Below are positions 10,765-59,430 of a stretch of DNA of 64,000 nucleotides, piece by piece. Position numbers and translations under genes: made by a program. The stretch is from Torpedo marmorata (Eukaryota). The notes under the pieces are model-generated. The model was given only the letters and a program-made list of their open reading frames with translations. It was not told the DNA's origin and made no database searches. Each line of letters begins with the position of its first letter. The first letter of the stretch is position 1. The DNA lies in contig OZ360249.1 of NCBI GenBank assembly GCA_977017645.1, positions 37,138,001 to 37,202,000 of the forward strand, in the 5' to 3' direction.

Positions 10765-10965
10765 TGCTTCTCCCTCTGCTCTTTCCTCCTTCCTCTCCCA
10801 GCCTTTTTATTCAGGCACCTGCCTGCTCTTTGCTTACATATACCTTGAAGAACGGCTCAGGCCCGAAACGTTGGTTATATATCTTTACCTCCTGTGGACG
10901 TTGCGTGACCTGCTGAGTTCCTCCAGCATTTTTATGTTTTTAACTACAATCTGCATGCTTTCACT
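10765..10965 (+). mobile_element. Penelope-like terminal repeat with hammerhead motif
   Basis: ttgaagaacggctcaggcccgaaacgtt at 10845-10872, then gacctgctgagttcctccagc. Confidence 0.8.
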
Positions 10966-11043
10966 TTTCAATCCAGTTTATCATCCTGAGAATTTTTTTT
11001 GTTTTATCCAAGTACAGGTCCTGTAATTCAAGGACATTGTGCT

Positions 11044-11553
11044 CATAGGCGTACGAGCTGGGGGCAGGGGGGGGGGCATTTGCCTCCCCCCCCAGATTCG
11101 GGCAAAACAGGGGAAAATTCGTGCAAAGCAAGAAGAAAAAAAAAATTGGACAGAGAAAGCAAAAAGATAAACAAATTAACAATAACGGCGGTCCCGCTCC
11201 ACCAGGGTCGGCGTCAAGGGGAGGGGGTGGGGCATTCGCGGGCATTGCCCCCCCCAAGCGAGGTGCTGTGCACCCACATACACTCGCGGCCATCGCTTGC
11301 GGTCAGACCCGCCCCCGTCACTAGCGTGCTTCAAGCGTCACGAGCGTACAGCTTGTCGCACGCTAGTGACTCTCCATCTGCCCCTTGCGTGCGTCTAGGT
11401 ATTTACCCCCCCTCCCCCCCGTTCACACACGTCCTCCCCACGCTTAGCACGCCGCTTCACGGAGGAGGCAGCGGCCTGTGTCCGGCCCCGTGTAAAATTT
11501 CGGGCAAATCAACCCCTTTGCCCCCCGAACCAAAGAGTCCCCATACGCCAATG
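11044..11553. mobile_element. hAT-like MITE, GC-rich
   Basis: Termini cataggcgta / tacgccaatg, subterminal ggggca..tgcccc motifs, and imperfect 8-bp flanks attgtgct / cttgggct. Confidence 0.7.
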
Positions 11554-11932
11554 CTTGGGCTCAGACCTTAAAATCATTAGATCCAGATATTAACCGTACC
11601 ATGAAAAATATATTCTATCTAAATAAATGTACCACAACTGGATTTTTTTTTAAGCGAGAGAAATTGAGCCGACTTAAACTTTCACTCAGAGCATGATACA
11701 AAAAACATAACAGAGGGATGAAAATGAACCTGAGATAACAGGAAAAGAGATAATGACCATTGCATTCCACACATCACAAACAAAATGGAAACTCTGATAC
11801 TTAAGCAACAGAATACTTAGCAAGTCCATCAATAGTCTTACTGAGTCTAAGAAATACCAGCACAAAACAACTCTGAAATGTTATCAAGCATACCGGGTGA
11901 ATATAAAAGTAATTAAAATCCTAAATCCTTTG

Positions 11933-12087
11933 GGAAGCAAAAAACAAAGGTCGGCAGATACCGTGGTTGAAGTAAAAACACAACGCTGGAGAAACTCAGC
12001 AGGTCAAACAATGTACTTTATATAGCAAAGATAGAGATACATAACCAAAGTTTCGGGCTTGAGCCCTTCATCAAAGTATGGATCAAG
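11933..12087 (-). mobile_element. Short Penelope-like terminal repeat insertion with hammerhead motif
   Basis: 12-bp TSD ctaaatcctttg (11921-11932, 12088-12099); motif at 12047-12074. Confidence 0.85.
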
Positions 12088-12190
12088 CTAAATCCTTTGC
12101 ACAGAAGCAGCAGATCAGAAACTCACACATCTTGATGCAAAGTGCGTGAATAGTCTTTGCTCAGGTAAAATTCTGGCATCTGGCACATTA

Positions 12191-12518
12191 CCATATATAT
12201 TCGTGTAAAAGTCAATACTGTGTAAAAGTCGACCCCCCCCTATTTTTGCCCCCAAAATCTGGTCTTTTCCATATACCATGTGTAAATGTTAATCCCCCTA
12301 TTTTTGGCCCCTGCCGCCCGCCCATCGGAGCTCCTGACGCTTCGACCGTGGACCTATGCCAAGGCCACAGCCACCTGCCTGCCCATCGGAACTCCTGACA
12401 CCTCGAACGCTGCAGGTACTTTGTGTGGTCAAAAGTAGCATGCGTGTAATAGTTGACCCCAAAAATTTAACGTTAAAAAATGGTCTTAAAAACTCGACTT
12501 TTACACGAGCATATATGG
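12191..12518. mobile_element. Tc1/mariner (Tc2/pogo-like) MITE
   Basis: TIRs ccatatatattcgtgtaaaagtc / gacttttacacgagcatatatgg flanked by TA. Confidence 0.85.
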
Positions 12519-13184
12519 TAGGTCTGAAAAATCCATTTAAAATCCCATTTCACAACATTACATTAAAGCTGCCAATTCAACAGTTCGTCTTCCAACAGCA
12601 CTGCCAATGGCTTCTTTACAAATAAATATCCTCTTCGGCAGTCTCTCGGGATCAAGTATGACCCCAGTTTTCTGGTGGCTACTGAGGGAAAGCCCTCTCT
12701 TCTACAGATGGTTGGTGGGATGGGTGGCTGGGTGGTTAGATTGTCAGATGGTATCCGCCTTCCACTGTTTATGCAGACTCTGGATGCAGGGACTGGAGGT
12801 TCCGAATTTCATCCCAATGCTCCACCTTCATTTTGAACAGTCATGGGGTGGAGACTCGCACGTGTTATTGAAGACGTCACACTTCCCCAAGTCTGGAATT
12901 TCCCATCCATACTTAATGGCCCTAATTACTCTTTCCTCTCAGGCAGGTGGGTAGTTTGTGAGGTGATAAATATCCAATATCATGCTTTTCACGCAACCCC
13001 TTTCAGATCATAACAGCATGCTGCAAAAAATAATATCCAATTTGACCTCTATCTTTAATATCAAATCGGCACCCTCCTTTTGGCATTTATTTTAATTACC
13101 TCTGTACACCAAGGGTTGAAGCAATGGGAAATACAGAACTTAACATGACGTCTAAAGTCTTTGGCTGCATCTCACAATAAAACA

Positions 13185-16950: not shown

Positions 16951-16984
16951 ACATTAATCTTTCATCCAACGCTATCAAAAATAA

Positions 16985-17760
16985 CACTGGGGAATGAAGA
17001 TTTTGCTTCCTGAACATGTTTGGATGTATTTTATGGATTTTGGGCTGCTGATCATGAAAATCTTCTTAATATTTCCCTATCATGCATCATTTTTTAGATA
17101 TAACCTATTTTGTGATTTCCTTTCATATTTTAAGTCAACTCGTATATTGTCAACAAAGCAAGCTGTTTTGGTCAGTCCAAGCATGCCTGGGCATGCACTC
17201 AGCGCAGGTGCTATGCAAATGTTGTCTTAGGCCTGGGCATGCTTAGTCAGGATAGATGCAGCCAGGCTATAAGAGCAGCTCACATATACATACTTTGATG
17301 AAGGGCTCAAGCCCAAAACATTGGTTATGTATTTCTACCTTTGCTACATAAAAGACACTGTTTGTGTTTTTTACTTCAACCACGGTGTCTACAGATTTTC
17401 GTGATTTACTTCTTTCACACATACAGATGCTGTGCATTACATTGATATAGATTGAACACATGTTGATGCACGTTTTTGAGGCAATAGCATAGTGAGTGTA
17501 CTTATCAATTCTTGTCTTCAGGAAGATTCAATACAGCAGAAATGTCTCGTCAATGTCGCAACAGCTGCGATACATTCTGTTACATTTGTGGCGTGTATAC
17601 GCTTAATGCTAAATTCAATATAAGTGAATTAAATATTTCTGCAACTTCCTACGTGATACAGCAAATCTGAAATTATCTTTGTGTTCTGCTTGAAGTCGTC
17701 TATCATAATCCTCTATATTTTTCAAGAAGAAAACCTTTTGAAAAAAATTGTTGTCCAGTG
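16985..17760 (+). mobile_element. Internally deleted ISRm11-like Tc1/mariner transposon retaining the transposase N-terminus
   Basis: Termini cactgg.. / ttgttgtccagtg are homologous to 21415-21996. An ATG at ~17542 gives MSRQCRNSCDTFCYICG. A Penelope-like repeat is inserted at ~17290-17410 (hammerhead motif 17295-17322). Family assignment is from recalled motifs. Confidence 0.75.
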
Positions 17761-18562: not shown

Positions 18563-20720
18563 TTTTTTTTTTAAATATTTTTGTTGATTTTCAGTAATAG
18601 TAAGTTTGTACATTACAATTATGGAATGTGCTACAGAAAACAAAAGATAAAAACAAGCACTGCGAGGATAATCATACATATAAATTCCCAAAGCACAACC
18701 ATAATAATAAAGAATGGATAAATTTTTAGTAAAATTTATCTAAATTCTCCAAACCCTGACCTTAAACAAGGTTGAAAGTTAATATTGATGAAATAAAGTA
18801 GCTCACTCTGAAGTGGGACAACACAGTGCCAAAGTTCTGTAATAACACTGAACCTAGAGATTATGGTAGTAGTCCATGAATGGGCCCCATAACGTTTGGA
18901 ATCTAATGTTAGAATCATTAATTGCGTATTGTAGCCGACTGCTATGAAGAAACACACACATGCAGTGTGGAAGGTTAAGCTCTCTGTTTATTGAGGCTGA
19001 AAATGCTTCTTTTATACAGTTGGAGTTCCCGCCGTTTGATTGATTGGTTGACATCTGCATGAATAACAATAGCGGGCGGGAACGTTCTTGCATATGAATA
19101 CCCTTCTTCCCCAGCCTGGTATTGATCTGATAGCTGGGCAGCTTGGCCAGCGCTATTTTAGGGCTGCTGGTCTTGTACTGCTCCAGCTTTCAACCGCGCC
19201 GGTTCGCTATGCTAAGGGTCGCATTACAGTGTGTTATGCCGCTGTTTACTACCGCGCGCGGCGCGCGATGTGCCGGCTCGATCTCCGTGGTGGCGGGCCG
19301 CCACAGTATCTAATTTTTTCCAAATTTAAACAGGACATTACGTCCCTTAACCATTGTGCATGAATAGGTGGGGTATTATCTTTCCACTTAATCAAAATAG
19401 CACGTCTGGCCAGCAATGAAGTAAAAGATAAAATGCGACATTTAATTGAAGTTAATAAGACATCGTCTTCTCCGAGAGTTCCAAACAGAGCAACTAAGGG
19501 ATTTGGTTCTAATTTTAAATTGAGAATCACCGATAATGTTTGAAAAACTTCTCTCCAATAGTTTTCCAAACTGGGGCACGTCCAGAACATATGGATTAAG
19601 GAAGCGTCACCTATTTTACATTTATCACAACGAGAATTTATATCTGTGTAAAAACGAGACAATTTGAGTTTAGACATATGTACCACTTTAAATTGTAGCA
19701 GACAGTAGCGAGCACACAGAGATGTAGTGTTAATCAGTTTGAAAATAGAGTCCCAAACCTCATTGGACAGCGAAAGGTTCAAATCCTGCTCCCAGGCATT
19801 CTTAATTTGGGTTAAACGGGTGTGTCTTAAAACAGTTAATTAGTCATAAATGACAGATATTAACCCTTTTCCAGAAGGTTGTAATCCAAAAAATGTATCA
19901 AGAATATTCACCTCAGGAGCTCTCGGAAAATCAGGGATCTGAGATTGAATAAAATGCCTGATTTGTAAATATCTGAAAAAATGAACGTTTGGTAAATTGA
20001 ATTTTCTGACCAATTGTGTAAAATATGCAAAGCTGTTATCAATAAAAAGGTCTTTAAAACATTTAATACCCAACCTATACCAATCATTAAATGCAGAATC
20101 CTGCAAAGAAGGCTGAAAAAGGTGATTAGACAAAATGGGGCTTGAGAGAAAAAGCCCTGAAGTCCAAAATACCTTCTAAACTGCACCCATATTCTCAAAC
20201 TGTATTTAACAACCGGATTGTCAGTTCGTTTATATGAGGCAAGAGAAAGAGAGGACCCAAGAAGTACCGAGATAGAAACATTTTTGGTGGAATTTAATTC
20301 CATTTCTACCCAAGCAGGACGGTCAACTCGATTATGAAATTGTAACAAGAACATAATATCATGTATATTGACCGCCCAATAATAAAATCTGAAATTGGGA
20401 AGCGCCAAAACACTATTCCGTTTAGACTTTTGAAGATGAGCTTTATTTAAACGGGGGCGCTTTCCTTGCCATATGTAAGACGATATAAGTGAATCGAGTG
20501 AGTCAAAAAATTATTTAGGAATAAAAACTGGTATTGGCTGAAAAAGATACAAAAATTTAGGTAGAATGTTCACTTTAATAGAATTAATATGGCCAATCAA
20601 AGAGATAGATAAAAGAGACCATTTCATTAAAGACAGTTTCACATGCTTAAGTAGAAAAATTTTCTTTAAAAAGATGTTTGTGATTCTTCGTATTTGCAAT
20701 GCCAAGATATGTAAATTGAT
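18563..20720 (-). mobile_element. L1 3' portion (ORF2 C-terminus, frameshifted), interrupted by a solo LTR
   Basis: INSIKVNILPKFLYLFQ, LPNFRFYYWA, CDKCKIGDASLIHMFWTCPSL, LEKIRY; T-run at ~18563. Confidence 0.92.
18930..19305 (-). mobile_element. Solo LTR (Gypsy-type)
   Basis: tgtagc...gccaca termini, 4-bp TSD gtat (18926-18929, 19306-19309), AATAAA on the minus strand at ~18986, CpG-rich. Confidence 0.85.
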
Positions 20721-23572: not shown

Positions 23573-24852
23573 TCAGAATCAGAATTTATTGTCATGAACA
23601 AGTCATGAAATTCTGTGTTTTGCAGCAGCATCATAGTGCAATTAACATTCATATTAACCATCTTACGACATTACTATAAAAATTATAAATAATAGTGCAC
23701 GAAAAGTAAGGCAGTGTCTTTGGTTCATTGATTATTCAGGAATCTGATGGCAGCGGGGAAGAAGCTGTCCTTGTGCCGTTGAGTGCTCGTCTTTAGGCTC
23801 CTGTACCTTTTTCCCGATGGAAGCAGAGTGAAGAGGGCATGGCCTGGGTGGTGGGGGTCTTTGAAGATAGAGGCTGCTTTTTTAAGACACCGCCTCATGT
23901 AGATGTCCTCGATGGAGTGAAGTTTGGTGCCTGTGATGTCACAGGCCGAGTTAACAACCCTCTGGAGTTTACTCTTGTCCTGAGAGTTGGCGCCTCCATA
24001 CCAGGCAGTGATGCAACCAGCCAGAATGCTCTCCACGGTACACCTGTAGAAGTTTACGAGAGTCTTCGGTGACATACCGAATCTCTTCAGACACCTCACA
24101 AAGTATAGCCGCTGACGAGCCTTCTTTGTGATTGCATCAACGTGGAGGTTCCAGTACAGATCCTCGGAGATGTTGACACCCAGGAATTTGAAGTTCTTGA
24201 CCCTCTCCACTACTGAGCCCTCGATGAGGACTGGGTCGTGTTCCCCTGACTTCCTCCTGAAGTCCACAATCATCTCCTTGGTTTTGCTGATGTTGAGCTC
24301 AAGGTTGTTGTCATTACACCATTTAACGAGCTGATCTAACTCCCTCCTGTACGCTTCCTCATTGCCGTTTGTGATTCTGCCGACAACTGTGGTGTCATCG
24401 GCAAACTTGTAGATGGCGTTGGAATTGTGCCTGGCCACACAGTCATGGGAGTATAACGAGTAGAGCAGTGGACTAAGCACGCATCCTTGGGGTGCGCCTG
24501 TGTTGATAATCAGTGAGTAGGAGATGTTGTTTCCAATTCGAACTGACTGTGGTCTTCTGATGAGAAAGTCAAGGATCCAGTTGCAGAGTGGGGTACAGAG
24601 GCCTAGAGTTTGTAGATTCTTGACCAGCACTGAGGGAATAATGGTATTGAAGGCCGAGCTGTAGTCGATGAAGAGCAGCCGTATGTATGAATTGCTGTTT
24701 TCGAGGTGATCCAGAGCTGAGTGGAGAGCCAGTGATATTGCATCTGCTGTGGAGCGATTGTGACGATAGGCGAATTGCAGTGGGTCCAGATCTTTGCTTA
24801 GGTACGTGTTAATTCTGGCCATGACCAGCCTCTCAAAGCATTTCATCACAGT
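23573..24852 (-). mobile_element. Rex1/Babar LINE, 5'-truncated, young (374-aa open RT frame at 23725-24849)
   Basis: [62 protein letters not shown]; tail gacaataaa(ttctga)n. Confidence 0.95.
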
Positions 24853-27157
24853 AGAATAGAGACATTCCTGATAACACTGTCTACTTTGTCAGCCCTGCTA
24901 GCTTGTAATAATATATGACATGACTGTGGTTTTACCGGAAAAACAAAACTAATAAATAAAATATGTGCAGCATTGATTAATTATTTCTGTCCATAGTGTC
25001 TGCTGAATAGTAATGCAGATCAGATTCTGAACAGATAAACTCCACAAATTTTAAAATTGATTTTAACTGAGTATGCTTTTAATGCAAGAAATAATTGGAC
25101 TAAGATGGCTGCATTGCCTTTTGAAATCTTTGTCATACTAGCATTTGTAAGTCCTTCATATTGGCAGAGATCATTTAAATAAAAACACTGCTTTGTAATT
25201 CTGCATGAAGGACTCAAATACAGAGACTATAAGTTTGCACCTCAGTTCTGTCCAAATCTAGTAACTGCCAGCCTCATTTACAGCAAGTCCTTTGTCAGTC
25301 TCTCACCAGGCTGGTGGTTGGAGCAACAAAGGTGGTCAGGAAAAGATGGAGCAACCATTCAAACAGATGGTTGAAGGGAAGTGTAGTGCTGGAACAAAAT
25401 ACCACAAAGGGTTAAGAATGCCAACATATTCATCACACTGAGCAGTTGGTTGTGCCATTGTACTCAACGCTCTAGTTCCTGAGAGCGCGGCGGGCTGTAC
25501 GGCGCTAAGCCAAACTAATTTGCAATGGTTCTGGAGGTTGTTTGAGATATGGAAGAACTGTGATTACATCTCACCGAGAGATATCCAAAAACAATTCTCG
25601 TCTGATTAATTCACTCTTTTAAAGAGGGAACCATTGGCAATATGTTCCCACAAACAGTCGGTGAGACAACAGCAAAGATTTTCTGCTTTGGGTCAAGACG
25701 CAGTGGAAAGCTATCACCCGCTCTCTCCAAATCTTCTGCCAGAAATCAACGGAACCAAATTAAACCCACGGAATCTTTTCCCTGAGGGGACAAGCGGGGC
25801 CTTAATTTGTCATCACATCTGAAGGGTGCCTCCACAAAGTACAGGGTAAACTTTCTGTGTTTTCCAATAGAAGAATGGCCATGAAGAAAGTCAAAACAAG
25901 TTCAGAAGATCAGAATCAGAATTTATTGTCATGAACAAGTCATGAAATTCGGTGTTCGGATTATGAAGGTAATGCTAGCAATTTGCAATGCAAATGATTT
26001 ACATGCATGGCCTTGCAAGTTCCAACCATCATCAAATGATACATTCATAGAAAATTCCACAACACAGGAAGATATTCAGTCCATCATGACCATGCTAACC
26101 AGCCTCATATCACCTTTCTGCAGGAGTACCCACAATGCTCCAATACATGGATCTTCAAGTACACATCCATGTATTTTTTTTAATGTGATGTGTATCTCTT
26201 TTTTACCATCCTTCTGTGCAAAGGGGTCTACATATCTTTCATCTTCAGGGTCAAAATATATTCCTCCTCTCCCCTTTAATCTATCTACAGAGCACTTTAC
26301 ATTGATACCCCTTTTGTTGACCCCTTTGTAAATAAAAATAGGTCCTTCCTGCTTACTCTGTGGTCCCTCAATCAAGATTACCCTCAGCCTCCTCTGTTCC
26401 TAACAAAGCAACCCTGGTTTATGCACTTTTTACTCGTTGCCAGGATTTTCCAGTCCCACCAACATCTTCATTAATCTCCTCTCCAGCACAGTCCATTTTT
26501 TCCTCCAAAAAACCGAGCAGAACCATAAGGCTTACATTGTGGTCTAACTGGCATGATGCAGGGACTCTCCCGGTTACAGAAGATCTGGCTTACGAAAATT
26601 GAACTTTGCGCAAATTCTCCCATAAAATTTTGAGGCATTTTTTAAAACAGAAAAGTTAGTTATTGGCATCTTTTGTTGTTATAGAATATTGGTGGCAGCT
26701 AGTTAATTTAAAAGACAACCAGTCTTCAAAAATAATCTGTTTACAGGAAACCTCCCCACAGTAATCGAACAGACACCATTGTCTTAAAGAACACGGCAGC
26801 TGCCAGCTCACAGCAGGAAGCCACTTAATAGATTTTCTTTGTAAATTGACAAAGCAATCATTGCTAGTGACACTTGCAAAGTACTTTGTCGAACAATATG
26901 ACATCTATGGATATTTTAAAGCCATCAAAACTTGCACCCTTGGATGTTGGACATTTTGATTCTGTGTCATTGTAACCACACCGGAAGACGATAAATAATT
27001 GTTCCCGTTAATAGACCCAGACTAAAATTGTTCCTTTTTGACATGGAAAAAAATTGGTTAACATTTCTCAGGAACAGAACCCCCACATAACCTGGGGACT
27101 ATACAGTTCAGTATCACCTGTTTTCTGTTCACCTTTTCAAACAACTTATCAGTCTTC

Positions 27158-28534: not shown

Positions 28535-28857
28535 AGAGTAAAAACACAGAGCAAATGCTAGAGGAGCTCAGCCGGTCTCGCAGCATCCCTTTTCCAGTTC
28601 TCCTCCCTCCCTTCCCCCTCTTTTCACCTAGCTATCCCTCCTCCCTTTGATCAATGCTGTCCCCTCCCTCCCTTCTCCACCTATCACCTCCTGCCTTTGC
28701 GATCCCCCTCCCCCCTTACTCTTTTGTTCTGACGCCTGCCAACATTTTTCCATACCTTGATGAAGGGCTCAAGCCCGAAACGTCGGTTATGTATTTTTAC
28801 ATTTGCTATATAAAGGACACTGCTTGACCTGCTGAGTTTCTCCAGCTTTGTGCTTTT
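28535..28857 (+). mobile_element. Penelope-like terminal repeat with intact hammerhead motif, preceded by an inverted tail fragment
   Basis: cataccttgatgaagggctcaagcccgaaacgtcggttatg at 28751-28791; 28535-28589 is a reverse-oriented tail. Confidence 0.85.
28751..28791 (+). ncRNA. Minimal type I hammerhead ribozyme motif (best-formed copy)
   Basis: Stem I CAUACC/GGU(U)AUG, core UUGAUGA(A), stem II GGGCU-CA-AGCCC, GAAA, vestigial stem III, GUC triplet (predicted cut after 28784). Confidence 0.75.
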
Positions 28858-30593
28858 GCTGACAAAAGAGATGTTGTTTTCCAGAAGGATTAAAATAGAT
28901 ACTAAGGAACTAACTATTTTCGAAGAAGTTAACAGTATTCCATTCAAGAACATAGTTGCCTGTGCAACTGATGGTGCCGCTTCAATGGTTGAACGATACA
29001 GAGGGTTCATCACACGCCTGAAAATTTTTATACCTTCAGACTTTATTGTTCATTGCATCTTAGTGGCTAAAAACTTAGGAGGATGTTTAAATGCTTTGCT
29101 CTTAATTACCATAAAGACTGTAAACTTTATAAAATCACATCCCTTTCAAGACCGTCTATTCCGGCAACTGTGTGAAGAAAATTACAAACATTCTGGACAC
29201 TGCTGCTGCACACCAAAGTGAGGTGGCTATCCAAAGGAAATTGTCTTTGTCATTTTGCTGCACTCTGGGACACAATTGTTTCCTTTTTTTTCTCATAAAG
29301 AGCATGAAGGAAAACTCATTGATGCAAAGGTGGACATATTTTGTCTGGTCGATATCTTTGACAAACTCAATTTGAACAAGACCTTGCAGGGTAAACACAA
29401 TGACCTCATTGATAGTTGGGAAGTCATTGTTTCTTTCCTTAAAAAAACTCGGTCTGTTGTATCAGACATTGGGAATTTTTACAATATCCATATCTGAACA
29501 CGAACGTAGAGGCACTGAAGGACAATGACAATACTGTTTATGTGAAACACCTAAAGCAAATACACGCAGATCTGCAGGAAACATTTAATGACCTGTTAAA
29601 CCTCAATATCTCATTAGATCCATTTGAGAACAACCACCGATGTTGATGCAGAAATTCAAGAGAGGTTGATTGATTGTCAGAGTGATATAATTGCAAGTCG
29701 TAAGTTCAATCAATTTAAAAAAAATTCTTGGGTTAAGAGTGATCTGCCGAATAGATTTCTAAAACTATGGGAAAAGGCTGAAATATTTGTCATTGCCTTT
29801 CACTCAACGTACTTAGTTGAACGTGGATTCAGCAAGGTAGTTTCCTTGACAAAATCCAGGAACAGACTTGATATCAGAAAAAGAAGTGACCTTCGTCTAT
29901 CACTATCCAATTTGGAGCCGGACATAAACATAAACATCAAGCTCAAGGATCTCACTAAAATTTTCATTTTATAAATATTATTTTTTAAAGTTATTTTTAT
30001 TCAGTTTTCACATCCTCAAATTTATGCTTGAGGTTCCCTAATGACTCATTGTGTGTAAACTATTGCACTCTAAGAATCCTTTTTTTAATTGTTTGTAATA
30101 TGTACAGGTATGCTCATCTTTTCTTCTTTCCTACATGCTCAATAAGAATGATTTCCTATTTGTCTGTTTGCTCTGGAACCACAAACCACAGTTGTCACGC
30201 TCAGAGTAAGTGCATTTTTTTCTTTTTATCTCATGTAACATAAATATTTTTAATGTTTTTTATGTAGTCGGTAGGAGAGAAGTACGGAAGAAACCAACTA
30301 AACTTGACTGCTTCACAGGGAAGGGGGCCCATAAACTTTGAGCAGAGTTCTAAGGGGGCCATTGGTCATAGGTTGAGAATGACTAATCTAGTTAACTGTT
30401 TTTCCTTCCAAAGTAGATGACCTCGCATTTACCCACATTGTAATCCATCACTGACATTCTCATGCCTGGACAAGTTCCTGGAGTGGTTCAATGCAAACTA
30501 GAAATACTCACTAGTCCAGCAGGCTCAAGGTTAAAACCACTTCCTGTTGCCTACTGTGATAAAACACAGCATCATGATATCTTGTGTCTAACC

Positions 30594-35419: not shown

Positions 35420-36712
35420 AGAGGGTGAGCAAATTTGTTCTTGGGAGTCACTATCTTGGAGGATCTTTCCTGGACCCAACACACTAATGGCATCGTGAAG
35501 AAAGCACGTCAGCGCCTCTACTTCCTCAGGAGTTTGAGAAGGTTTGGTACGACACCAGAATCCCTGGCAAATTTCTACAGAGGTGTGGTGGAAAGTGTGC
35601 TGACCGGCTGCATCATGGACTGGTATGGGGACACCAATACCCCTGAGTGTAAAGCCCTCCAAAAGGTAGTGGACACAGCCCAGGACATCACAGGCAAAAC
35701 CCTCCGCACCAAAAAGAACATCTACAGGGAATGCTGCTGTCGGAGAGCAGCAGCAATCATCAAGGATCCACACCACCCAGCACACGCTCTATTCTCGCTG
35801 CTGCCATCAGGAAAGAGGTATAGGTGCCACAAGACTCGCCCTACCAGATGTAAACACGAAAATATGTAGACACCGTAATAATGTAGTAAAAAACACAAAA
35901 GCTGGAGAACTCAGCAGGTCAAACAGTGTCTTTTATGTAGCAAAGGTAGAAATACATAACCGACGTTTCGGGCTTGAGCCCTTCATCAAAGTATGAGAAA
36001 ATGCCGGCAGGCGTCCGAACAAAGGAGTGAGGGGGGAAGGGAGGTGGCAAAGGCAGGAGATGATAGGAGGAGAAAGGAGGGAGGGGACAGCAGCAAAGAG
36101 GGGGAGGAGGGATGGCTGGGTGGGTGGAACCTGATTTTTTCCACCCACCCAGCCATCCCTCCTCTCCCTCTTTGCTGCTGTCCCCTCCCTCCTTTCTCCA
36201 CCTATCATCTCCTGCCTTTGCCACCTCCCTTCCCCCCTCACTCCTTTGTTCGGACGCCTGCCGGCATTTTCTCATACTTTGATGAAGGGCTCAAGCCCGA
36301 AACGTCGGTTATGTATTTCTACCTTTGCTACATAAAAGACACTGTTTGACCTGCTGAGTTCTCCAGCTTTTGTGTTTTCGCCCTACCAGATTCAGGAACA
36401 GCTGCTACCCCGCCACCATCAGACTCCTCAACAACAAACTCAATCAGGGACTCATTTAAGGACTTTTACTTGTGCGCTTTGTTGATTTTTTATTCTCTCT
36501 GTATTGCACAGTCAGTTTGTTTGCATTCGTTATCTGTTTGCAGTTCTTTATTTGGTGCATGTGTACGCTGTGTACAGTTATTTTTTGCACTACCAATAAG
36601 TGGTAATTCTGCCTCGCCCACAGAAAAAAGAATCTCAGGGTTGTATGTGATGTCATGTATGTACTCTGACAATAAATCTGAAATCTGAAATCCTGAAAGA
36701 TCTGAAATCTGA
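35420..36712 (+). mobile_element. Rex1/Babar 3' fragment interrupted by a Penelope fold-back
   Basis: [32 protein letters not shown]; (aaatctg)n tail. Confidence 0.92.
35850..36377 (-). mobile_element. Penelope-like insertion with inverted terminal-repeat duplication (240-bp arms, 9-nt spacer)
   Basis: TSD tcgccctaccagat (35836-35849, 36378-36391). Arms 35890-36129 and 36139-36378 show two mismatches by eye. Hammerhead motifs at 35962-35989 (-) and 36279-36306 (+). Confidence 0.92.
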
Positions 36713-37819: not shown

Positions 37820-38880
37820 TATTACCCTGAAGAAGTTCGCCTTTGTTCTCCGAAGGGAGTTCTGTGGGATTCTCTCTCACTGCTCCCCATCTGCAGCCCC
37901 TGCCGCTCTCAAGCTCTACGACCATGTACTCACCCAGACTCGATTCCACAGCCACGTTGCCTTCCTTGCTACTTGCCTCCGCCGGCATCTTGTGCCTCGT
38001 AGTTTCCAGCTTCGATTCCAGGCCTCGCAGTTTGGCCCTCGCAAGGACCTCAGGTACCTCCACAGCATCGACTGCTGCTCTCTCCGTTTCTCCCGACGAC
38101 TCTTCCGCACCACCCTCACCTCGATGCGGAGATACCAGCGGCAACTCGCCCTCTCCCTGCCACAGCTCCGGACCTCGCTGGCCGTGGCCCGCAGCGGACC
38201 CCTCCTATACTACATCCGCCGCCGGATCCACATGTTCAACCACCGGCTCTACACCCACCTAGCGTCCATCAAGAACCGTAAGCTTGCCTCCCTCGAGACT
38301 GCAGCCTCTGCGACCCTCTACGTGGATCCCCATCTCGGCCCCGGCCGCCTGCCCTCCAGAGCTCCCAATGCCGCGTCGGCCGACCCGAGCCTGGACCCCG
38401 TCCGCCAACTCACCGGAGCTCCCAACGCCATGGCCGCCGACCCGATCCCTGGCCCCAGCCGTCGGCTCACCGGAGCTCCCAACGCCACGGCCGCCCACTC
38501 CTACCCGCGCCCCGGGCGCCGACACGAAGGTACTCCCGACGCCACGGCCGCCCACTCCAGCCCGGGCTCCGAGCCTCTACTCACCAGAGCTCCCAATGCC
38601 TCCCACGCTGACTGCCACTGGAGTCCTCATCTCGCTACTGAATCCCACTTACCTATCCCCCTCACTATTCCTTCCCTATCCTCCTACACCTCTCCCTACT
38701 CCACCCCCATCTCCCCCTCTCTGCCCCCCTCTCCTCCCCAACCCTCAGACCTCACCCCCACCCCCGCTCTCTCTGGCTACCCTCCCTACCCCCTTCTCCC
38801 ACCCTCCTATCTCCCCCACCCCCCACCTCCCCCCCCTCCCCCCACCAACACTCCTCCTCCTCCCTCCAATCCCCGAGCAG
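37820..38880 (+). mobile_element. Penelope-like ORF N-terminal region with proline-rich ~57-60-nt repeats, 3'-truncated
   Basis: Open frame LKKF..LYDHVLTQTRFHSHVAFLATCLRRHLVPRSFQLRF, homologous to 9383-9560, which directly follows a Penelope-type tail. CpG-rich, with repeats gagctcccaacgccacggccgcc at ~38355-38610. Confidence 0.7.
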
Positions 38881-40778: not shown

Positions 40779-41682
40779 ATGAAAATATACTAGACACTAA
40801 CCCCTTAATATTAAAAAAAAGTTTCTACACCTTGGCTTCTTTTAGTCTAAAAATACCAATGGCAAAACAGGTGAGCTCTCCTTCAGACATATTCACGTTG
40901 TACCTCATAACACAGGACCCAGACTTTGCAGGAGGATGGTGTATTTATGGGAGAAAACTTCCTCATTGTTGTCGATGCTCACTCTAAATGGCCAGTGGTA
41001 TCCCACATGAAAAAAACAACAACAAACCAGACCATTGAAAGACTACGAAGTATATTTGCGTTATATGAATTGCCTATTGAACTGGTTTCCGATAATGGTC
41101 CACAGTTTGTATTGGATGCTTTTAAAGTATTCCTACGTAATAATAATATTCGACATGTCTTATCTGCACCCTACCACCCCAGCACTAATGGAGAAGCTGA
41201 ACGTTTTGTGCAGACTTTCAAAAAAGCCATGAAAACTAAAAAACTCCTAAACACATCATGGAATCACAAAATCGCAGATTTCCTATTAGGATATAGAAAC
41301 ACGCCCCACTCTACAACCAAAAGAACACCGGCTGAATTAATGTTTGGACGTAACTTAAGAACAAGACTTTCCACAGTACATCCGAACATCGGCCTTCACA
41401 TACAGCAATCCACGTCTCCAAGTAAACCTACCAGATCTCTGGAAGTGAGAGAGCGAGTACTGGTACGGGATAACCGAGACTCCAAAGAGCCGTGGATAAG
41501 AGGGGTTATTCTTAAAAAACTAAGTCCCTGTTCTTATTCTATACTGGTGGGAACTAAAATATGGAAACGACACATCGACCAGTTAAGAGCAGTAGATGAT
41601 CCTATGGCCATGCCTTCGGCTCAAGATCCCGATGAGCTTCCAGATGAAATTCCCTGGGCTCCAGAAATATCCGTGAAAAGGG

Positions 41683-41830
41683 AGACCCCTCCTCAACCAA
41701 GTAGCCCTCAACGGACCCCTCCTCAACCAAGTAGCCCTCAACAGACCCCTCCTCAACCAAGTAGCCCTCAACGGACCCCTCCTCAACCAAGTAGCCCTTA
41801 ACAGACCAGTCCTCCTCAACAACCCAGTCC
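41683..41830 (+). repeat. 30-bp tandem repeat (4 near-perfect units plus degenerate ones) encoding TPPQPSSPQR
   Basis: gacccctcctcaaccaagtagccctcaacg repeated. Confidence 0.95.
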
Positions 41831-42759: not shown

Positions 42760-43130
42760 GATAACCAAGAAAATCTGCAGATGCCCTGGTCGAGTGCAGT
42801 GCACAAAAGTGCGGGAGAAACTCAGCGTCCATAGGAAATAAAAGGCAGTCAATGATTCAGGCCTGAGCCCTTCATCAGGAATCCTGGTAAAACAGGTAAA
42901 CGTCTGAATAAAAAAGGTGGGGGCTGGAGGGTGGAGGGAGGAAAGGGAAGGGGGAGGAGCACAGGCTAACATGTAATGGAGAGGGCAGAGGGCTAAGAAG
43001 CGTAGCTCTCTGATAGGAAGGGAAGAGGCTGGGAAGCTGGAGGAAAGGAGACAGAGGAGTAGCAAAGAGAGACACAGGGGAGAAGATAGTATCAGAGCAA
43101 AGGAGAAGCAGAAAAGATGGCGAATCAAGG
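42760..43130 (-). mobile_element. Penelope-like terminal repeat with canonical CUGAUGA hammerhead core
   Basis: The minus strand at 42851-42878 reads ctgatgaagggctcaggcctgaatcatt. Confidence 0.75.
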
Positions 43131-44085: not shown

Positions 44086-44528
44086 GAGTGAAACACGAAA
44101 TTCTGCAGACGCTGTGATTGTAGTACAAACACACAGAAATGCTGGAGGGAACTCAGCCGGTCTCGCAGGAGATGCTCCACTTGCGCCCACACCTCCTCCT
44201 TCAGCACCATTCGGGGCCCCAAACAGTCCTTCCAAGTGAGGCAACATTTCACTTGTGAATCTGCAGGGGTCATATACTGCATCCGGTGCTCCCGTTGTGG
44301 TCTCCTCTACATCGGAGAGACTAGGCGCAGACTGGGAGATCATTTGTTGAGCACCTCTGCTCTGTCCGACGCAATAGCGTGGATTTCCCAGTGGCCACCC
44401 ATTTCAATTCCCCGCCCCATTTCAATTCCGCGTCCAATTCCCTTGCTGACATGTCTGTCCATGACTTCATGCACTGCCAGACTGAGACCACCCGAAAATT
44501 GGAGGAACAACACCTCATCTTCCAACTG
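44086..44528 (+). mobile_element. Penelope GIY-YIG endonuclease fragment preceded by an inverted terminal-repeat tail
   Basis: FTCESAGVIYCIRCSRCGLLYIGETRRRLGD, PVATHFN, RKLEEQHLIF; 44086-44168 is the repeat tail on the minus strand. Confidence 0.92.
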
Positions 44529-45534: not shown

Positions 45535-45776
45535 AAAGGTGAAGGTTCCATTATTGTCACGTAATACTACATTTAGAATGTAGCATACATGAAATTCTTT
45601 AATTTTTGTCTACCGTAAGGCAGACAGAGTGTCGCTACTTTGTCCAGCGTCACAGAAACCTACAGCACCTGGTGTTCCTAGGCGGTCTCCCCTCCAAGTA
45701 CTGACCAGTCCTGTGCCTGCTTAGCTTCTGAGATCTGACAATCCCAGTCGTATTCAGGCTATTGGTGCTGTGCAAC
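45535..45776 (-). mobile_element. 5S rRNA-derived SINE candidate (5S-like head 45656-45776 plus ~120-nt LINE-like tail)
   Basis: The minus strand reads cctgaatacg..gatctcagaagctaagcagg..tggtcagtacttggaggggagaccgcctaggaacaccaggtgctgtaggttt, matching vertebrate 5S. The tail recurs at 46885-46962. Confidence 0.8.
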
Positions 45777-46865: not shown

Positions 46866-47257
46866 TTAGCTGATAGAGGCCATTAGACAAAAATTAAAGA
46901 ATTTCATGTATGTTACATTCTAAATGTAGTATTACGTGACAATAATGGAACCTTTACCTTTAAACCCATCATGTTTGCTTTGGTTGAGAGAAACCCGAGT
47001 GTGATCCCAGCCCTCAGCCGTTCTGCATTGCTTCTTGCTTCACAGCCAGTTTAAGATCCAGCTTGCCATGCTGATTTGAATAAGATGGTTAATATTTTTG
47101 GCCAGCTGACATGTGTGACCTTGTGACAAGCTTTGCTGAAATTCATAGACTACATCAAAGGCACTGCCTTCATTGACTCTCCTTGCCACTCTAAATGACT
47201 TATTATGATGGGTATAGATTCCAGATTTTGAACTCTGGAACCTACAATATATAAAAT

Positions 47258-47705
47258 AGTAAAAACACACAGAAATGTGGAGGAACTCAGCCGGTCTCGC
47301 AATGTCCATGGGAGGTAAAGATATCTTACCGACGTTTCAGGCCTGAGACCTTCTTCAACGTGTAAGCAAGAAAACAGGAAAGCATCTGCATAAAGACTGG
47401 AGACTGGAGAGAGAAAGGGGGAAGAATGGGAGGGGGAGGCATCCAGACCAACAGCCAAAACGTGCTAATTGGATACGATAAGAGGAAAAGTGAGAATTGA
47501 TTTTGGCTCTGTGAAAGGAGACAGAGGGAAAAGGGAAGAGAGAAAGGCAGAGACAGAGGCGGGGGAAAGGCGACAGGGGGAAGAAGAAGGAGGGGGTTTA
47601 ACAGAAACCGGAGAAGTCGATATTAATGCCATCAACCCAGATGGAAGATGAGGTTTTCTTCCTCCAATTTTCGGGTGGTCTCAGTCTGGCAGTGCATGAG
47701 GTCAT
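47258..47705 (-). mobile_element. Penelope 3' end (GIY-YIG C-terminus plus terminal repeat with hammerhead motif)
   Basis: 47640-47705 is homologous to 44460-44525; motif at 47331-47358. Confidence 0.85.
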
Positions 47706-51167: not shown

Positions 51168-51296
51168 AAAATTCACCGAAATGCTGGAGTAACTCAGCCG
51201 GTCTTTTCAGCGTCTAGAGGAGACAAAGATATATTGCCGACGTTTCGGGCCTGAGCCCTTCTTCAATGAATAAGCCAGAAGCAGGAAATCTCAGAA
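51168..51296 (-). mobile_element. Short Penelope-like repeat with hammerhead motif
   Basis: 15-bp TSD agtctaacttttgta (51153-51167, 51297-51311); motif at 51239-51266. Confidence 0.87.
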
Positions 51297-51341
51297 AGTC
51301 TAACTTTTGTACATATGATCCAGTCTGCAGATTTAATTTAG

Positions 51342-51552
51342 TGCTCCTCCCCTTCCCCTTCCTCCCCTCCACCCCCCCCACCCACCTTTTTATTCAGGCG
51401 CCTGCCTGCTTTTTGCTCATACGTTGATGAAGGGCTCAGTCCCGAAACATTGGTTACCCTTTACTTCCTATGGATGCTGTGTGACCTGCGTGCTTCTCCA
51501 GCACGGTTGTGTATTGCACTCAACCCCCTGCATCTGCAGACTTTCTTGTTAA
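51342..51552 (+). mobile_element. Penelope-like repeat with hammerhead motif
   Basis: ttgatgaagggctcagtcccgaaacatt at 51424-51451. Confidence 0.8.
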
Positions 51553-54874: not shown

Positions 54875-55005
54875 CGAGCGACTGCAGAAGCTGGAACATG
54901 GAGCAAAAAATGCAGTCGGTAGGAGGAACTCAGCAAGTCATGCAGCATCAGTGGGAGAGAAAGAAAGGTCAATGCTTAAGGCCGGAACCCTTCATCAAGA
55001 CTGAA
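54875..55005 (-). mobile_element. Old Penelope-like repeat with degenerate hammerhead motif
   Basis: ggaggaactcagc...aacccttcatcaagactg. Confidence 0.6.
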
Positions 55006-55689
55006 TCATCAAGTCTGCATTAGAACCAGGAACTACATGTGCCCTCTCGAATACAGTGTCCTCTGTGATTCATCTCAAAGGCACAGACGCCATTTTGGAC
55101 TTCGAAAAAGTGAAATAACAGGTTTTGTCCGTCCCAGTTTCTCGCAGACTATCTGATCTTAAACTGGCAGCCTTCACTGCTAACTCTTATTGAGGAATGA
55201 AAGAGCACAGTGGGTTCCCCAAGTCCTTGCATGGTAGATGCCCTTTATGACACTCTTTCTTTAATTGATTGCAAAGACGGTTAGAAAGGCCTATTGTAAA
55301 CACGAAACACATCTGTGAGCAAATGCTCTCCTGCTGTATAAACACTTCCCGAGGAAGGCTGCGGGCAACTCACACCAGCAAGGAGATCTTACTCACTGGA
55401 CAAGATAAATATTTTATTTGCTCAATTAAGTTACTTCTCGGAGTTTTCTTTTGTTTTGATAGTGTTTGGTTTTCTCAAATAGCATCAAGTTTGAAAAAAA
55501 TACTTTTGACAGACTATTGAAATTGTCCCTTTGAGATTTTAGAAGGGTTAATCATGAAATTATGGGTTAAAAAATGAAACTGTGGCAATTTTCTTTTAAT
55601 GGAAATGTATCAAGATCGGTAACTTCATTAATTAATTTGCAGTTGATTGTCACAAAAGAACCTTTGAAGAGGCGAAAGACAAGATTAAG

Positions 55690-55905
55690 CTGGAGGCAGT
55701 TCAGTGCATAGAGAGCACATTGTCCGAGGTATCAGCTTATAGGTGAGGCAAGAAATTGAGGCCTCGTCTGTCTTCTTGGTTGGTCATGAAGTATTGTCAG
55801 CACCACAGAGCTGGGATATTCGGATCAACTTTTGTCCCCATGTAGCTCCCCATTATCCCTTTGCTGGACATGACACCTTGCTGTGTGCAACTAAGGTCGC
55901 ATCAG
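55690..55905 (+). mobile_element. Ancient Deu-domain SINE remnant
   Basis: gcacattgtccgaggtatcagcttataggtgaggcaagaaattgaggcctcgtctg and cattatccctttgctg..accttgctgtgtgcaa resemble the Deu-SINE consensus as recalled. Confidence 0.5.
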
Positions 55906-56061
55906 AGCTGTCCTTGATATGGTCTCAAGAATCCTCTGAAGGGCAAGGCCCTCCATTTCTATCCATTCAGTATTTAACATATCTCCTTTGCAGGCCATCT
56001 GTGGCCAGGAATCAAAGAAAATGTACGTCACAGAAAGAGGCCATGAAGCCTATCATAATGA

Positions 56062-56308
56062 ATCACGAAAGTCTGCAGACGTTGTGATTGTTTTAAAAAC
56101 ACACAGAAATGTTGGAGGAACTCAGCCGGTCTTGCAGCTTCCATAGGAGCTGACGTTTCGGGCCTGAGCCCTTCCTCAAGGTATAAAGTCTTTTTTCATT
56201 CATATCTTGAGGAAGGGCTCAGGCCTGAAACGTCGGTAATATATCTTTAACTCCAATGGACGCTGCGAGACCAGCTGAGTTCCTCCCGCATTTCTGTGCG
56301 TTTTTTCT
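56062..56308. mobile_element. Penelope-like inverted terminal-repeat pair with two hammerhead motifs
   Basis: Motifs at 56152-56179 (-) and 56207-56234 (+), core UUGAGGA, arms diverged. Confidence 0.85.
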
Positions 56309-57555
56309 TTAAAAAAGCCGATCGTGTCCAGACTGGTTCAAAACTACTCAGTCCAATCCCATCTCCATTTCCACGTCCATAGACCTGCAGGTCACAGCTC
56401 CTCAAATACACATCCAAGTACGAGAGAAACTTACAATGTTTCAGTAATGCGGGGATGGGTTTCAAAAATATGACACTGAAGAATAAGTTGATGAGAATAT
56501 CATTAACATGAACAATCTGACAGTATTTCAGCTCATGGTCACACTGGCTAAAGAGAAAGGTACAACTTTAGGCTCTCTAGCCCAGATTATTTTCGGCTGC
56601 TTTTGAATCTGCCAACGTTTGTCAAATTCAGATGGCTAAAAACTGTTTCAGTAATAAATTCTTGCCATTGCCTAACCCTTCGAGGGTTTGGAACCAGGGG
56701 TCGAGGAGGTGTGACTTGGAGTCCCTAAGCTTGGGTTCACCGCTGGACCGGACAGGAGGCCATACGTCCACAGAGGTTACATGGGTGGACGCAAGAGGCA
56801 GTGGCATTGGAGGACGTAGCAGAACCACGGACACTCAATGTCTCTTTACCTTGATAGTGGCACCTCTTTCTGTGCCTTTAAAGGGTAAAATTAAAGGAAA
56901 AACTTTTTGATGTATTTGTGTCCATAACAATAAACAGATCTTGAATCTTGCCAGACTTCTCAGCGCCAATGTTGCATTCAGCTAAATTTCTTCACTAGTC
57001 CAATTGCACATTCTGCTCAATCACAAGGGAGCCTAATAAGCCCCTGGCATGTATGAATACAACATTCTGAGCCGGAATAAAACCAGAGATCGCTTGACCA
57101 AAAGGGACATCAAAACTTATGATCAATATGAACAGACCAAGAGGACTGCATACGCAATCCACCTGGAGAGATAAATGGTGCCTCGGTCAATAAGGTGCAG
57201 CTATGTTTAATTATTTCACCCAGTTATTATCTTTTTATTAGCCAACTACCTCAGATTGTCATACAGTCTCTGCTGCACTGAACCTCTTAACTATGCTCTG
57301 TTCCAAATATGAATGGCCCTCAAAGAATCAGGCCTGCGCGATTCATGTGGCTGCACTGCCATCTGCTGAACTATGATGGTAAATCAAAAGAGCCATTCAC
57401 AAAGGAGACCGACCGCAACGTTCAATTCTGCCTCTCCCTCACGAGCTCTCATGAAATTTAGGTCCTCCAATTACAAATGCATGCTCTTGAAACAGAAATC
57501 TATGCCAGCAAAAGGCAGTGAACACTCTGACCTAACTTTCCAAATCTATTCCCAT

Positions 57556-57678
57556 CAGGGGTGCAGTGGTAATTTTTTAGGCACCGGAGCTCACCAAAAA
57601 TGGCGACAAGGATGTGTCAGAGCTGCCCCATGAGGTGCCGGAGCGGCGCTCCGGTGAGCTCCGGCAGCACTGCACCCG
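57556..57678. mobile_element. 123-bp hAT MITE
   Basis: Perfect 8-bp TSD attcccat (57548-57555, 57679-57686); termini caggggtgcagtg / cactgcacccg. Confidence 0.88.
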
Positions 57679-58094
57679 ATTCCCATGCCGAGCAAAGGGC
57701 ATTCAACACATCGTACAGCGACTGCAAAGAACTCACTCGTGCAGCAATGGGAGGCCACCACTATTAACTAGACAAATTGTCAAAAAAAATACTCCTGCAC
57801 TTTGACCACAGCCCTCAAAATTCTTCCCTCGCAAACAAATATCCATTTCCCTTTTGAAAGGTACCACTGTTTCGACTTCAACCTTTCTTTCAGGCATTGC
57901 GATACAGTGCTTCATCTCCACCTGAATCACTCTAAACTCTAAATTCAGTTTCTGGTGTGGCACAGGAGGTCATGTTTATAAAATATGCAGGTGCGAGATA
58001 CCATAGTTAGCACGAACTTCGCTTGGATCTAAACAATATCCCACAGTTCATCTCAGCTGCAGTGATGAGAATGGAAAGGAAGTGCCATCTTCAG

Positions 58095-58662
58095 GACTGG
58101 TATGGGGACACCAATACCCATGAGCATAAAGCCCTGCAAAAGATAGTGGACACCGCCCAGGACATCACAGGTAAAACCCTCCCCACCATCGAGAACATCT
58201 ACGGGGAACGCTGCTGATAGAGAGCAGCAGCAATCATCAAGGATCCACACCACCCAGCACACGCTCTGTTCTCGCTGCTACCATCAGGAAAGCGGTATAG
58301 ATGCCACAAGACTCGCACCACCAGGTTCAGTGACAGCTGCTACCCCTCCACCATCAGACTCATCAACAACAAACTCATTTATTATTTATTTAATAAATAA
58401 ATAAGAAAACAGTAAATAAATAAATGATAAATAAAAATGGACTTATTTAAGAACTCTTACTTTTGCACTTTATTGATTTTTTTCCTCTCTCTGTATTGCA
58501 CAGTCTGTTTGTTTACATTTCTTATTACATGTGTATGTTGAATCAGTTATTTTTGCACTGCTACTAAGTCGTAATTCTGCCTCGCCCGCAGGAAAAATAA
58601 TCTCAGGGTTGTATGTGATGTCATTTATGTACTCTGAAAATAAAATTGAAATCTGAAATCTA
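58095..58662 (+). mobile_element. Rex1/Babar 3' end
   Basis: WYGDTNTHEHKALQKIVDTAQDITG plus the shared 3' UTR. Confidence 0.9.
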
Positions 58663-58818
58663 AAGACTGCCTATTCACCAGCTTCCCCACTGTGTTCTGA
58701 GCCCAGACCACAACCAACCATCTGGGCAAGTGAGCATGGAGATTTAGCCTTCTGGTTGGATGCTAATTGTATCTCATTGGCTTGTTTTGCACTGGTACAA
58801 TGACAATAAAGTGTATCT

Positions 58819-59198
58819 TGTAGCGCGTCGCTACGGCTATAGCTCTGCACGTCGAGTTGGTCGTCAAGTCGGTCGTCGAGGCAGTCGTTGCTCTAGTTCT
58901 GGAGCTCAGGAGAGAGATCCACTCCCTCCGAGCGTCAAACAGAACTGCCTATTCTGCCGTCGGCTCTGCCTTTTATAGGTGGGCCGAGCCTGACTGCCGC
59001 GTCACGGATGGGGTGTGGCCTAAGGCGCGACGCCCAAGATTGGTCGGGCCACGATCCATCCTTAGGGATTGGCCCATTCCCTCGTTGCCGTTGTGGCCTA
59101 TGGGAACGGGCCGTCCGAATCACGTGCCGCCTGCGCGATCGCCGTGTTCGTACACCGCTCTCTGTATCGGCCTGCGGAGTAGGTCGCGGGCCGCTACA
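58819..59198. mobile_element. Solo LTR (Gypsy-type), CpG-rich
   Basis: Perfect tgtagcg / cgctaca termini and 4-bp TSD atct; inserted in a LINE tail that continues as (aatct)n. Confidence 0.85.
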
Positions 59199-59282
59199 AT
59201 CTAATCTAATCTAATCTAATCTAACCCTTCTTGTCTCTGATAACTCAGCTCTCGATGGGAGGTAGCAGTCTGGAGGTCACAT

Positions 59283-59430
59283 TCTTATACCTTGAGGAAG
59301 GGCTCAGGCCCGAATCGTCAGTAATATATCGTTACCTCCTATGGACCCTGCGAGACTGGCTGAGTTCCTCCAGCATTTCTGTGTGTTGTTACTACAATTT
59401 CAGTGTCTGCAGACTTTCATGTTTCACTCC
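59283..59430 (+). mobile_element. Penelope-like repeat with hammerhead motif
   Basis: ttgaggaagggctcaggcccgaatcgtc at 59292-59319. Confidence 0.82.

Follow-up and report, generated by a model that had tools for sequence, protein, structure and literature searches.

The DNA analysed here (the window) is a stretch of 64,000 nt from Torpedo marmorata (OZ360249.1, positions 37,138,001–37,202,000, forward strand). It holds fourteen copies of a minimal hammerhead ribozyme (min-HHR) motif, which a first-pass annotation had assigned to the terminal repeats of a Penelope-like element (PLE). All fourteen are present where that annotation had put them, its minus-strand positions being the low coordinate of each copy. 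A loose family pattern finds exactly these fourteen motifs in the window and 0–1 in each of 15 dinucleotide shuffles of it, while a family-independent minimal-hammerhead descriptor matches 8 of the 14 against 0–3 in the shuffles (mean 0.5, n = 15). The catalytic letters (U4 G5 A6 N7 G8 A9, G12 A13 A14, A15.1-U16.1 and H17) are intact in ten copies, and core lesions occur in four (G12A; A15.1U twice; G12U together with A15.1G). The ACGU palindrome, through which two motifs could pair, is kept in eight. Core, stem II, palindrome and the 2.1-1.1 pair are all retained in four copies, namely 28757+, 35962−, 36279+ and 56207+. A related tail lies 3′ of every motif, and a pyrimidine-rich 3′ untranslated region (3′UTR) precedes many of them. 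Since 35962− and 36279+ belong to one insertion, and 56152− and 56207+ probably to another, the set represents about 12 independent insertions. The fourteen motifs are thus real, mostly decayed relics of a hammerhead motif known from the ends of Penelope-like elements.

The most conspicuous trait of these motifs is a uridine at core position 3, which faces G8 and is found in 13 of the 14 copies, as had been claimed; 42851− is the sole C3 copy. Variation at position 7 (U, A or G) and the GUC of the 28757+ copy, which ends at 28784, were likewise described correctly. The extra A after A9 is present in all fourteen copies, but it is no novelty, being part of the published PLE min-HHR consensus (CUGANGAH; PMC4209133). 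A U-A or U-G pair that had been placed in stem II would close a loop of 2 nt, and stem II is therefore better read as 4 bp with a UCAA or UCAG tetraloop.

The motifs lie in the pseudo-long terminal repeats (pLTRs) of a PLE with an open reading frame (ORF) for reverse transcriptase (RT) and GIY-YIG domains, which bears out their description as minimal type I hammerheads of Penelope-like repeats. Searches of the whole genome, covering 6.22 Gb, located an intact unit of 3,849 nt with the order motif, ORF, motif and an uninterrupted ORF of 1,158 amino acids (L164, G000:C43), as well as three units in tandem with periods of 3,787 and 3,803 (L161, G000:C44). A further locus (L023) combines an inverted 5′ pLTR piece with a 980-codon open stretch containing RT and a frameshifted GIY-YIG; its Pfam matches to RVT_1 (E = 2e-6) and GIY-YIG (E = 3e-4) are both slightly below the curated cut-offs. 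Atlas matches to RT/GIY-YIG clusters were 0.96–0.98. The protein displays a proline-rich N-terminal region encoded by a 57-nt repeat, a DKG motif (ADKGG at amino acid 566), YIDD, a CX4CXXC linker (CARRRCNTC at amino acid 1026) that agrees with the CX2-5CxxC pattern of PMC8557442, and a CCHH-type GIY-YIG (IYCIRCSLCGFLYIG at amino acid 1064, with the histidines further downstream). Judged by these sequence features, the element is an endonuclease-bearing (EN+) Penelope-like element with a single ORF for RT plus GIY-YIG at its C-terminus, and its protein would be of the Neptune or Nematis type as characterised in PMC8557442. Tandem pLTRs (L161, L164), an inverted 5′ piece (L023) and target-site duplications of variable length (12–14 bp in the window) are further features of the Penelope-like family. 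The arrangement differs from that of non-LTR retrozymes, as a motif occurs in none of the window's 20 tandem arrays and the tandems found in the genome are 3.8-kb coding units.

In the intact tandem units the predicted cleavage site is situated 153 nt upstream of the ATG, a motif follows about 210 nt downstream of the ORF stop, and the arrangement repeats every 3.8 kb; hence the motif is non-coding. Insertions pass through the uncut motif and end at either of two tail sites, which follow the cleavage site by approximately 75 and 112 nt. Among 81 copies of the A family, 40 have the long tail, 39 the short one, and 2 continue into the ORF leader. A divergence of about 2% in subfamily A1, the young tandem units and the one open ORF of 1,158 amino acids indicate that the family was active recently. 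The window motifs are hammerhead-bearing pLTR ends, together with their tails, of 5′-truncated copies of this one family. Physical linkage to GIY-YIG coding sequence, which had been noted at 44086 and 47258, is found only at the latter, where motif 47331− is joined to GIY-YIG coding sequence (47596–47704), whereas the piece at 44086 is without hammerhead.

Within the tail, 31–41 nt downstream of the cleavage site, lies a hairpin-like stretch of 22 nt (e.g. 28826–28847 in the window). Twenty of its 22 positions are invariant across six subfamilies, a figure to be read in view of the fact that the hairpin doubled as alignment anchor. By its conservation, this hairpin is a candidate for a protein-binding site at which reverse transcription may start.

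Using the tail hairpin as anchor, 129 copies were collected and sorted into subfamilies by the sequence 3′ of the cleavage site; 114 were classified, near-duplicates and unclassified rows being dropped. The subfamilies in which U3 is fixed are A1 (2% divergence, n = 12 unselected), A2/3 (5%, n = 13) and B (6%, n = 15). C and D are older (10%, n = 3, and 16%, n = 4) and carry C3-G8 in 80 and 91, respectively, among the first 100 matches listed, while E (12%, n = 2) has U3 in 76 among the first 100 matches listed; these tallies for C, D and E were counted by eye. The first-pass annotation had proposed that U3 is fixed in at least two subfamilies of this lineage. This holds for A and B, and U3 prevails in E, but it is not fixed lineage-wide, given that C3 is found in the older C and D, which belong to the same family.

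Exact counts in the genome yield 71,998 U3·G8 motifs, 586 with C3-G8, 880 with U3-A8 and 672 with G5A, and reversed-pattern controls yield 0. Of 47 loose motifs that retain UGA in an unselected genome sample, 39 carry U3. The C3-G8 count is near the G5A background in this exact sequence context. Given 880 U3-A8 motifs against a decay background of 672 with G5A, compensation by A8 was not amplified, and it was rejected as an account of how U3 is accommodated. CpG decay as the origin of U3 was rejected as well, since the next base is U and whole young subfamilies have U3 as their majority state. Positions 3 and 8 consequently form a U3·G8 wobble instead of a Watson-Crick pair in A, B and most of E, which, as far as sequence can tell, would lower the case for a canonical core and not that for a motif that works like a min-HHR. 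A second wobble, U2.1·G1.1 or its derivatives, is found in 53 of 56 A1 matches. Loop II reads UCAA in A, UCAG in B, CCAG in C and UCCG in E; the latter three presumably fall into the stable YNMG tetraloop class.

Comparison of the six subfamily majorities reveals no change at any of the 10 catalytic positions, at the extra A or in the CG, while 13 of 99 flank positions are invariant. For the five core positions outside the search anchor the contrast is 5 of 5 against 13 of 99 (p = 9e-5). The ACGU palindrome is kept in all six majorities, and the flanks differ by 14–62% while 13 core positions remain unchanged. Between A1 and B, both of which have U3, there are 0 changes in 13 core positions and 20 in 69 downstream positions (P about 0.01). 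Free to vary across subfamilies are N7, H17 (C or U) and loop II. Position 3 is either C or U among the majorities, with G8 constant, and on this account U3·G8 would seem to be tolerated rather than dead. Some stem pairs take compensatory forms in different subfamilies, with C-G at 2.2-1.2 in A and B but U-A in D and E, and with C-G at 10.4-11.4 in A to D but U-A or U·G in E. The core is therefore conserved beyond the flanks across six subfamilies, though covariation is weak relative to shuffled alignments (see below). Coding constraint was considered as the cause of this conservation and rejected, because the motif lies outside the ORF. When folds were predicted with either C or U at position 3, the energy gap separating a misfold from the hammerhead-like fold was smaller by 0.9–2.3 kcal/mol with U3 in the GG-flanked subfamilies, with no such narrowing in D or E; as one natural copy per subfamily was used, two of them with flank changes, this predicted effect is suggestive only.

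A cleaved linear template would be expected to give copies starting at G1.1. A1 copies were counted by the start of their family sequence in 5-nt bins, with CpG degeneracy allowed in the bin just upstream. No 5′-end spike at the scissile bond was seen in A1, with 401 junctions in the bin ending there, 557 in the bin downstream and 742 in the bin upstream. Single-site junctions numbered about 300, 210 and 310 by tallies made by eye on the first 100 listed, a fraction of a percent of the family; among 30 such loci inspected were 8 inversion junctions and 6 internal deletions. Since copies do not pile up at the cleavage site, linear cleaved RNA is not the main template. The copy ends fit uncut tandem precursors, as reported for the anole element in vitro (PMC11167929), or re-ligated circles. 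It is conceivable in this context that RNA is efficiently cleaved to unit length, circularised and reverse-transcribed from the circle into copies and tandems, a model proposed in PMC4209133. The head-to-tail tandems with a motif at every junction would agree with such a process, and a ligated circle would leave no 5′-end spike. However, tandem precursors account for the same data without cleavage, and the wobbles at 3-8 and 2.1-1.1 speak against efficient cutting, so that we regard this route, which overlaps with the explanation given below, as improbable.

Further observations concern transcripts. An intron starting at the cleavage site (a GT...CCAG look-alike) finds no GT..AG joint among those listed in the contigs of six runs, such contigs showing presence, not absence. 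In one run, contig depth drops steeply some 3 nt ahead of the cleavage site, a drop that is not used as evidence. Run X8, whose loose ends resemble small-RNA adapters, has far deeper contigs over the motif's 5′ half than further on (L164:3864–3897), which may be an assembly effect or reflect small RNAs against the element.

Taken together, we consider it probable, from sequence comparisons, that U3·G8 marks a weak ribozyme, dependent on protein or dimerisation, which selection maintains in the source elements, the scattered solo copies likely being inert. Source elements would give rise to tandem transcripts, whose two motifs may pair via ACGU to form stem III, probably with the help of the element protein. 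U3·G8, joined in the youngest subfamily by U2.1·G1.1, would keep cleavage slow and partial. Reverse transcription would begin in the tail, copy uncleaved or re-ligated RNA and usually stop early, so that the motif stays on most fragments. A bolder proposal is that the uncompensated U3·G8 is a working, selected core, adopted more than once as an attenuator, and that the surviving uncut tandem RNA drove amplification to hundreds of thousands of copies; we hold this to be rather unlikely.

A competing possibility is that U3·G8 abolished catalysis, the motif being kept as a protein recognition or folding element, or being in early decay, and that the loss of cleavage helped A to amplify. The ages point in this direction, as the U3 subfamilies are the youngest and those with C3 are older, and so does abundance (71,998 U3 against 1,982 C3 exact-type copies, by patterns that differ slightly). 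Moreover, A1 has acquired U2.1·G1.1 in addition, and copy ends bear no trace of cleavage. Ribozyme mutants of the anole element are reported still to support insertion in vitro (PMC11167929), and PLE clades without hammerheads are described as proliferating well (PMC8557442). Against this stand the remaining catalytic letters, which are fixed between U3 subfamilies whose tails differ by 29–62%, the restriction of position 3 to C or U with G8 never altered, and the prevalence of U3 in the old and distant subfamily E. A hemichordate PLE motif with U3·G8 is listed in the supplement of PMC4209133. A loss of catalysis hence appears possible, but is not our preferred reading.

Several points weigh against a weak ribozyme under selection. 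The Rfam comparison proposed as a check returned no hammerhead family among 76 window matches at E ≤ 5. Subfamilies C, D and E rest on 6–10 copies each, some of which were fetched by C3-specific patterns. The youngest and commonest subfamily accumulates departures (U3·G8, U2.1·G1.1, UCAA loop), a pattern also compatible with decay. Within the A lineage alone, the contrast between core and flank is not significant (A1 versus A2/3: changes at 0 of 13 core against 11 of 77 other positions, P = 0.14). In the 18-row alignment, 30–44 of 500 shuffles reached covariation as high, and the rows had partly been picked by a pattern that fixes stem II. A tree built from 46 tails (at most 8 per subfamily) separates neither C, D, B and E nor single from multiple C-to-U origins, and it does not tell whether the path between A and B had U3 throughout.

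The first-pass annotation had also suggested that, if the window were transcribed as an intron, its pre-mRNA would carry many potential self-cleavage sites. In favour of such an action on a host gene, the 64 kb contain four intact copies, of which three have plus orientation. The density of one motif per 4.5 kb given for the window holds locally and is about three times that of the genome, where 80 evenly spaced 10-kb pieces (800 kb in all) contain 60 loose motifs, or one per 13 kb; as the window was chosen after the fact, no meaning is attached to this excess. On the other hand, no host exon was found among 132 of the 235 unmasked ORFs (≥45 amino acids), searched longest first, which gave three weak Pfam matches, all below cut-off. 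Seven motifs are on the plus and seven on the minus strand, ten of the fourteen are damaged, and the nearest intact pair on the same strand is 7.5 kb apart. Three of the four intact copies (36279+, 35962− and 56207+) sit in inverted repeats and would be buried in double-stranded RNA. Monomeric min-HHRs are reported not to have cleaved in vitro (PMC4209133), and core positions of the copies decay like neutral DNA. With four of fourteen copies intact and no host exon found, self-cleavage of a pre-mRNA is unsupported, and we regard it as very improbable.

Whichever reading applies, the element belongs to a known kind, and there is no indication that it affects a host gene. Exact copies number 71,998, and extrapolation from 60 in 800 kb suggests some 470,000 loose relics. 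If U3·G8 cleaves, descriptors demanding C3-G8 or U3-A8 miss the commonest form in such genomes; if it does not, the family may represent a clean case of a ribozyme fold retained for another purpose. The natural series of C3 and U3 motifs with otherwise identical cores makes the role of PLE hammerheads in transposition testable.

The features of the family in the window are collected in Table 1.

Table 1. Hammerhead motifs and related fragments of the Penelope-like family in the window (positions in nt)
Feature	Position	Strand	Remarks
Older family copy	9315..9525	+	Without hammerhead; tail end and ORF start
min-HHR relic, subfamily B type	10845..10872	+	U3, H17=U, G10.1->C mismatch in stem II
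min-HHR relic, subfamily A (older)	12047..12074	−	U3, intact core, dimer palindrome broken (ACUU)
min-HHR relic, subfamily A	17295..17322	+	G12A, predicted dead
3′UTR, pLTR and short-tail fragment	28626–28857		Holds the 28757+ motif
Intact U3·G8 min-HHR, subfamily A2	28757..28784	+	Predicted scissile bond after C28784
Fold-back (inverted) insertion, young subfamily A1	35849..36378	both	Holds intact 35962–35989 (−) and 36279–36306 (+); flanked by 12-bp target-site duplication (35837–35848 and 36379–36390)
Intact U3·G8 min-HHR, A1	35962..35989	−	U2.1·G1.1 wobble; long tail
Intact U3·G8 min-HHR, A1	36279..36306	+	U2.1·G1.1 wobble; short tail
5′ part of the family ORF	37823..38860	+	Without hammerhead; 90% identical to intact unit
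min-HHR relic, D-type flank	42851..42878	−	Sole C3 copy; A15.1U, predicted dead
Separate insertion without hammerhead	44091..44523	+	Inverted tail 44091–44162 (minus) joined to frameshifted linker/GIY-YIG fragment 44164–44523
5′-truncated copy, subfamily B	47251..47704	−	GIY-YIG C-terminus 47596–47704, 3′UTR, motif 47331–47358 (mismatches in stem II and at 2.1-1.1), tail
min-HHR, subfamily B	51239..51266	−	Core and palindrome intact, A2.1·G1.1 mismatch; own 12–14 bp target-site duplication
min-HHR relic, C-type tail with U3	51424..51451	+	Stem II mismatch, palindrome lost
Old min-HHR relic, subfamily E	54971..54998	−	G12U and A15.1G, predicted dead
Back-to-back pair, subfamily B type	56152..56234	both	27 nt apart; 56152–56179 (−) stem I disrupted, 56207–56234 (+) intact; probably a single inverted insertion
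min-HHR relic, subfamily B	59292..59319	+	A15.1U, predicted dead or weak

Elsewhere in the genome, very short fold-back or tandem arrangements of motifs, 7–46 nt apart, were noticed (L008/L009, L011, L025); in L025, a pair on one strand could associate into an intramolecular dimer. The 3′ half of the motif also makes up a 34-nt tandem array at G000:C2:61528618–61528886. In the window, strong Rfam matches of the microRNA type at 36.0–36.3 kb correspond to the fold-back insertion at 35849–36378.

At least 51% of the window consists of repeats, as judged against 1.4 Mb of sampled DNA. Decayed non-LTR RT fragments occur at 1386–6238, 9748–10635, 19249–20510, 23725–24888 and 60463–61143, two of them with a Pfam RVT_1 match. 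An integrase core (PF00665, E = 1e-12) at 40911–41801 (+) belongs to a decayed long terminal repeat (LTR) retrotransposon and is followed by a 30-nt tandem repeat. Broken ORF pieces at 28867–30238 (+), directly 3′ of the 28757 copy, have no Pfam match; we take them to resemble a hAT/Buster-type transposase. A 5S rRNA match at 45657–45775 (−), which scores 47.3 bits and so exceeds the Rfam gathering score, is probably the head of a 5S-derived short interspersed element or a pseudogene.

The Torpedo motif closely resembles the PLE min-HHRs described by Cervera and De la Peña (2014, PMC4209133). Shared features are the extra nucleotide between 9 and 10.1, G10.1-C11.1, palindromic 15.2-16.2 (CG), a short stem I, the lack of stem III, a motif in both pLTRs with mostly solo copies, and opposite-strand pairs 100–700 bp apart. 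The layout of stem II, GGGC with a tetraloop, is that of the Acropora Neptune row. The extra A, the opposite-strand pairs and the palindromic ACGU have a precedent there, and the same account reports solo copies, the Schistosoma U3-A8 and low activity of dimers. It differs in that its consensus is C3-G8 and its discussed variant U3-A8 (Schistosoma), whereas the Torpedo majority is U3·G8. Among the 56 rows of its supplement there is one PLE-linked U3·G8 motif, Saccoglossus kowalevskii(1), which reads UUGAAGAA and seems to pass without comment there. The 71,998 exact Torpedo copies compare with about 4,000 motifs in coelacanth and 9,000 in Xenopus (PMC4209133), counted with different descriptors.

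PLE min-HHRs in print are reported not to cut as monomers or without the protein of the element (PMC4209133; PMC11167929). For the Poseidon element PAc of Anolis, unprocessed RNA is described as the substrate, and cleavage as requiring the protein (Frangieh et al., 2024, PMC11167929). The Torpedo element shares with PAc, as presented there, tandem pLTR-ORF units, a hammerhead upstream of the tail, two tail ends 30–40 nt apart and no sign of cleaved RNA as insertion template. In contrast to the non-coding Torpedo motif, that of PAc is C3-G8, with an ORF that begins inside stem II, and Poseidon is without the Neptune/Nematis-type cysteine linker of the Torpedo protein. As in the EN+ Neptune and Nematis elements described by Craig et al. 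(2021, PMC8557442), there are a C-terminal CCHH GIY-YIG, a CX2-5CxxC linker, DKG, inverted 5′-truncated pieces and a tail of 30–40 bp; the ORF differs from that description by its 1,158 amino acids and its repeat-encoded proline-rich N-terminal region.

Natural core variants of hammerheads may retain low activity (PMC3088659; PMC7151607). Perreault et al. (2011, PMC3088659) treat U3-A8, with other core mutants excluded from their final set, and PMC7151607 cites a variant from a halophile that has U3 and G8 together with an insertion of two bases; PMC6765202, PMC3884650 and bioRxiv 2026.07.22.740005 served as context only. A literature search for C3U or U3-G8 found no paper on a U3·G8 PLE family, Lünse et al. 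(2017) and Przybilski and Hammann (2007) lying outside that search. The variants described in PMC3088659 and PMC7151607 are rare single motifs, and the change at 3-8 discussed there is the compensatory U3-A8, whereas U3·G8 in Torpedo is uncompensated and dominates a mass-amplified family. Both the motif and the element that carries it are of known kinds, and the modest twist lies in a little-noticed U3·G8 core on such a scale, next to sister subfamilies with C3.

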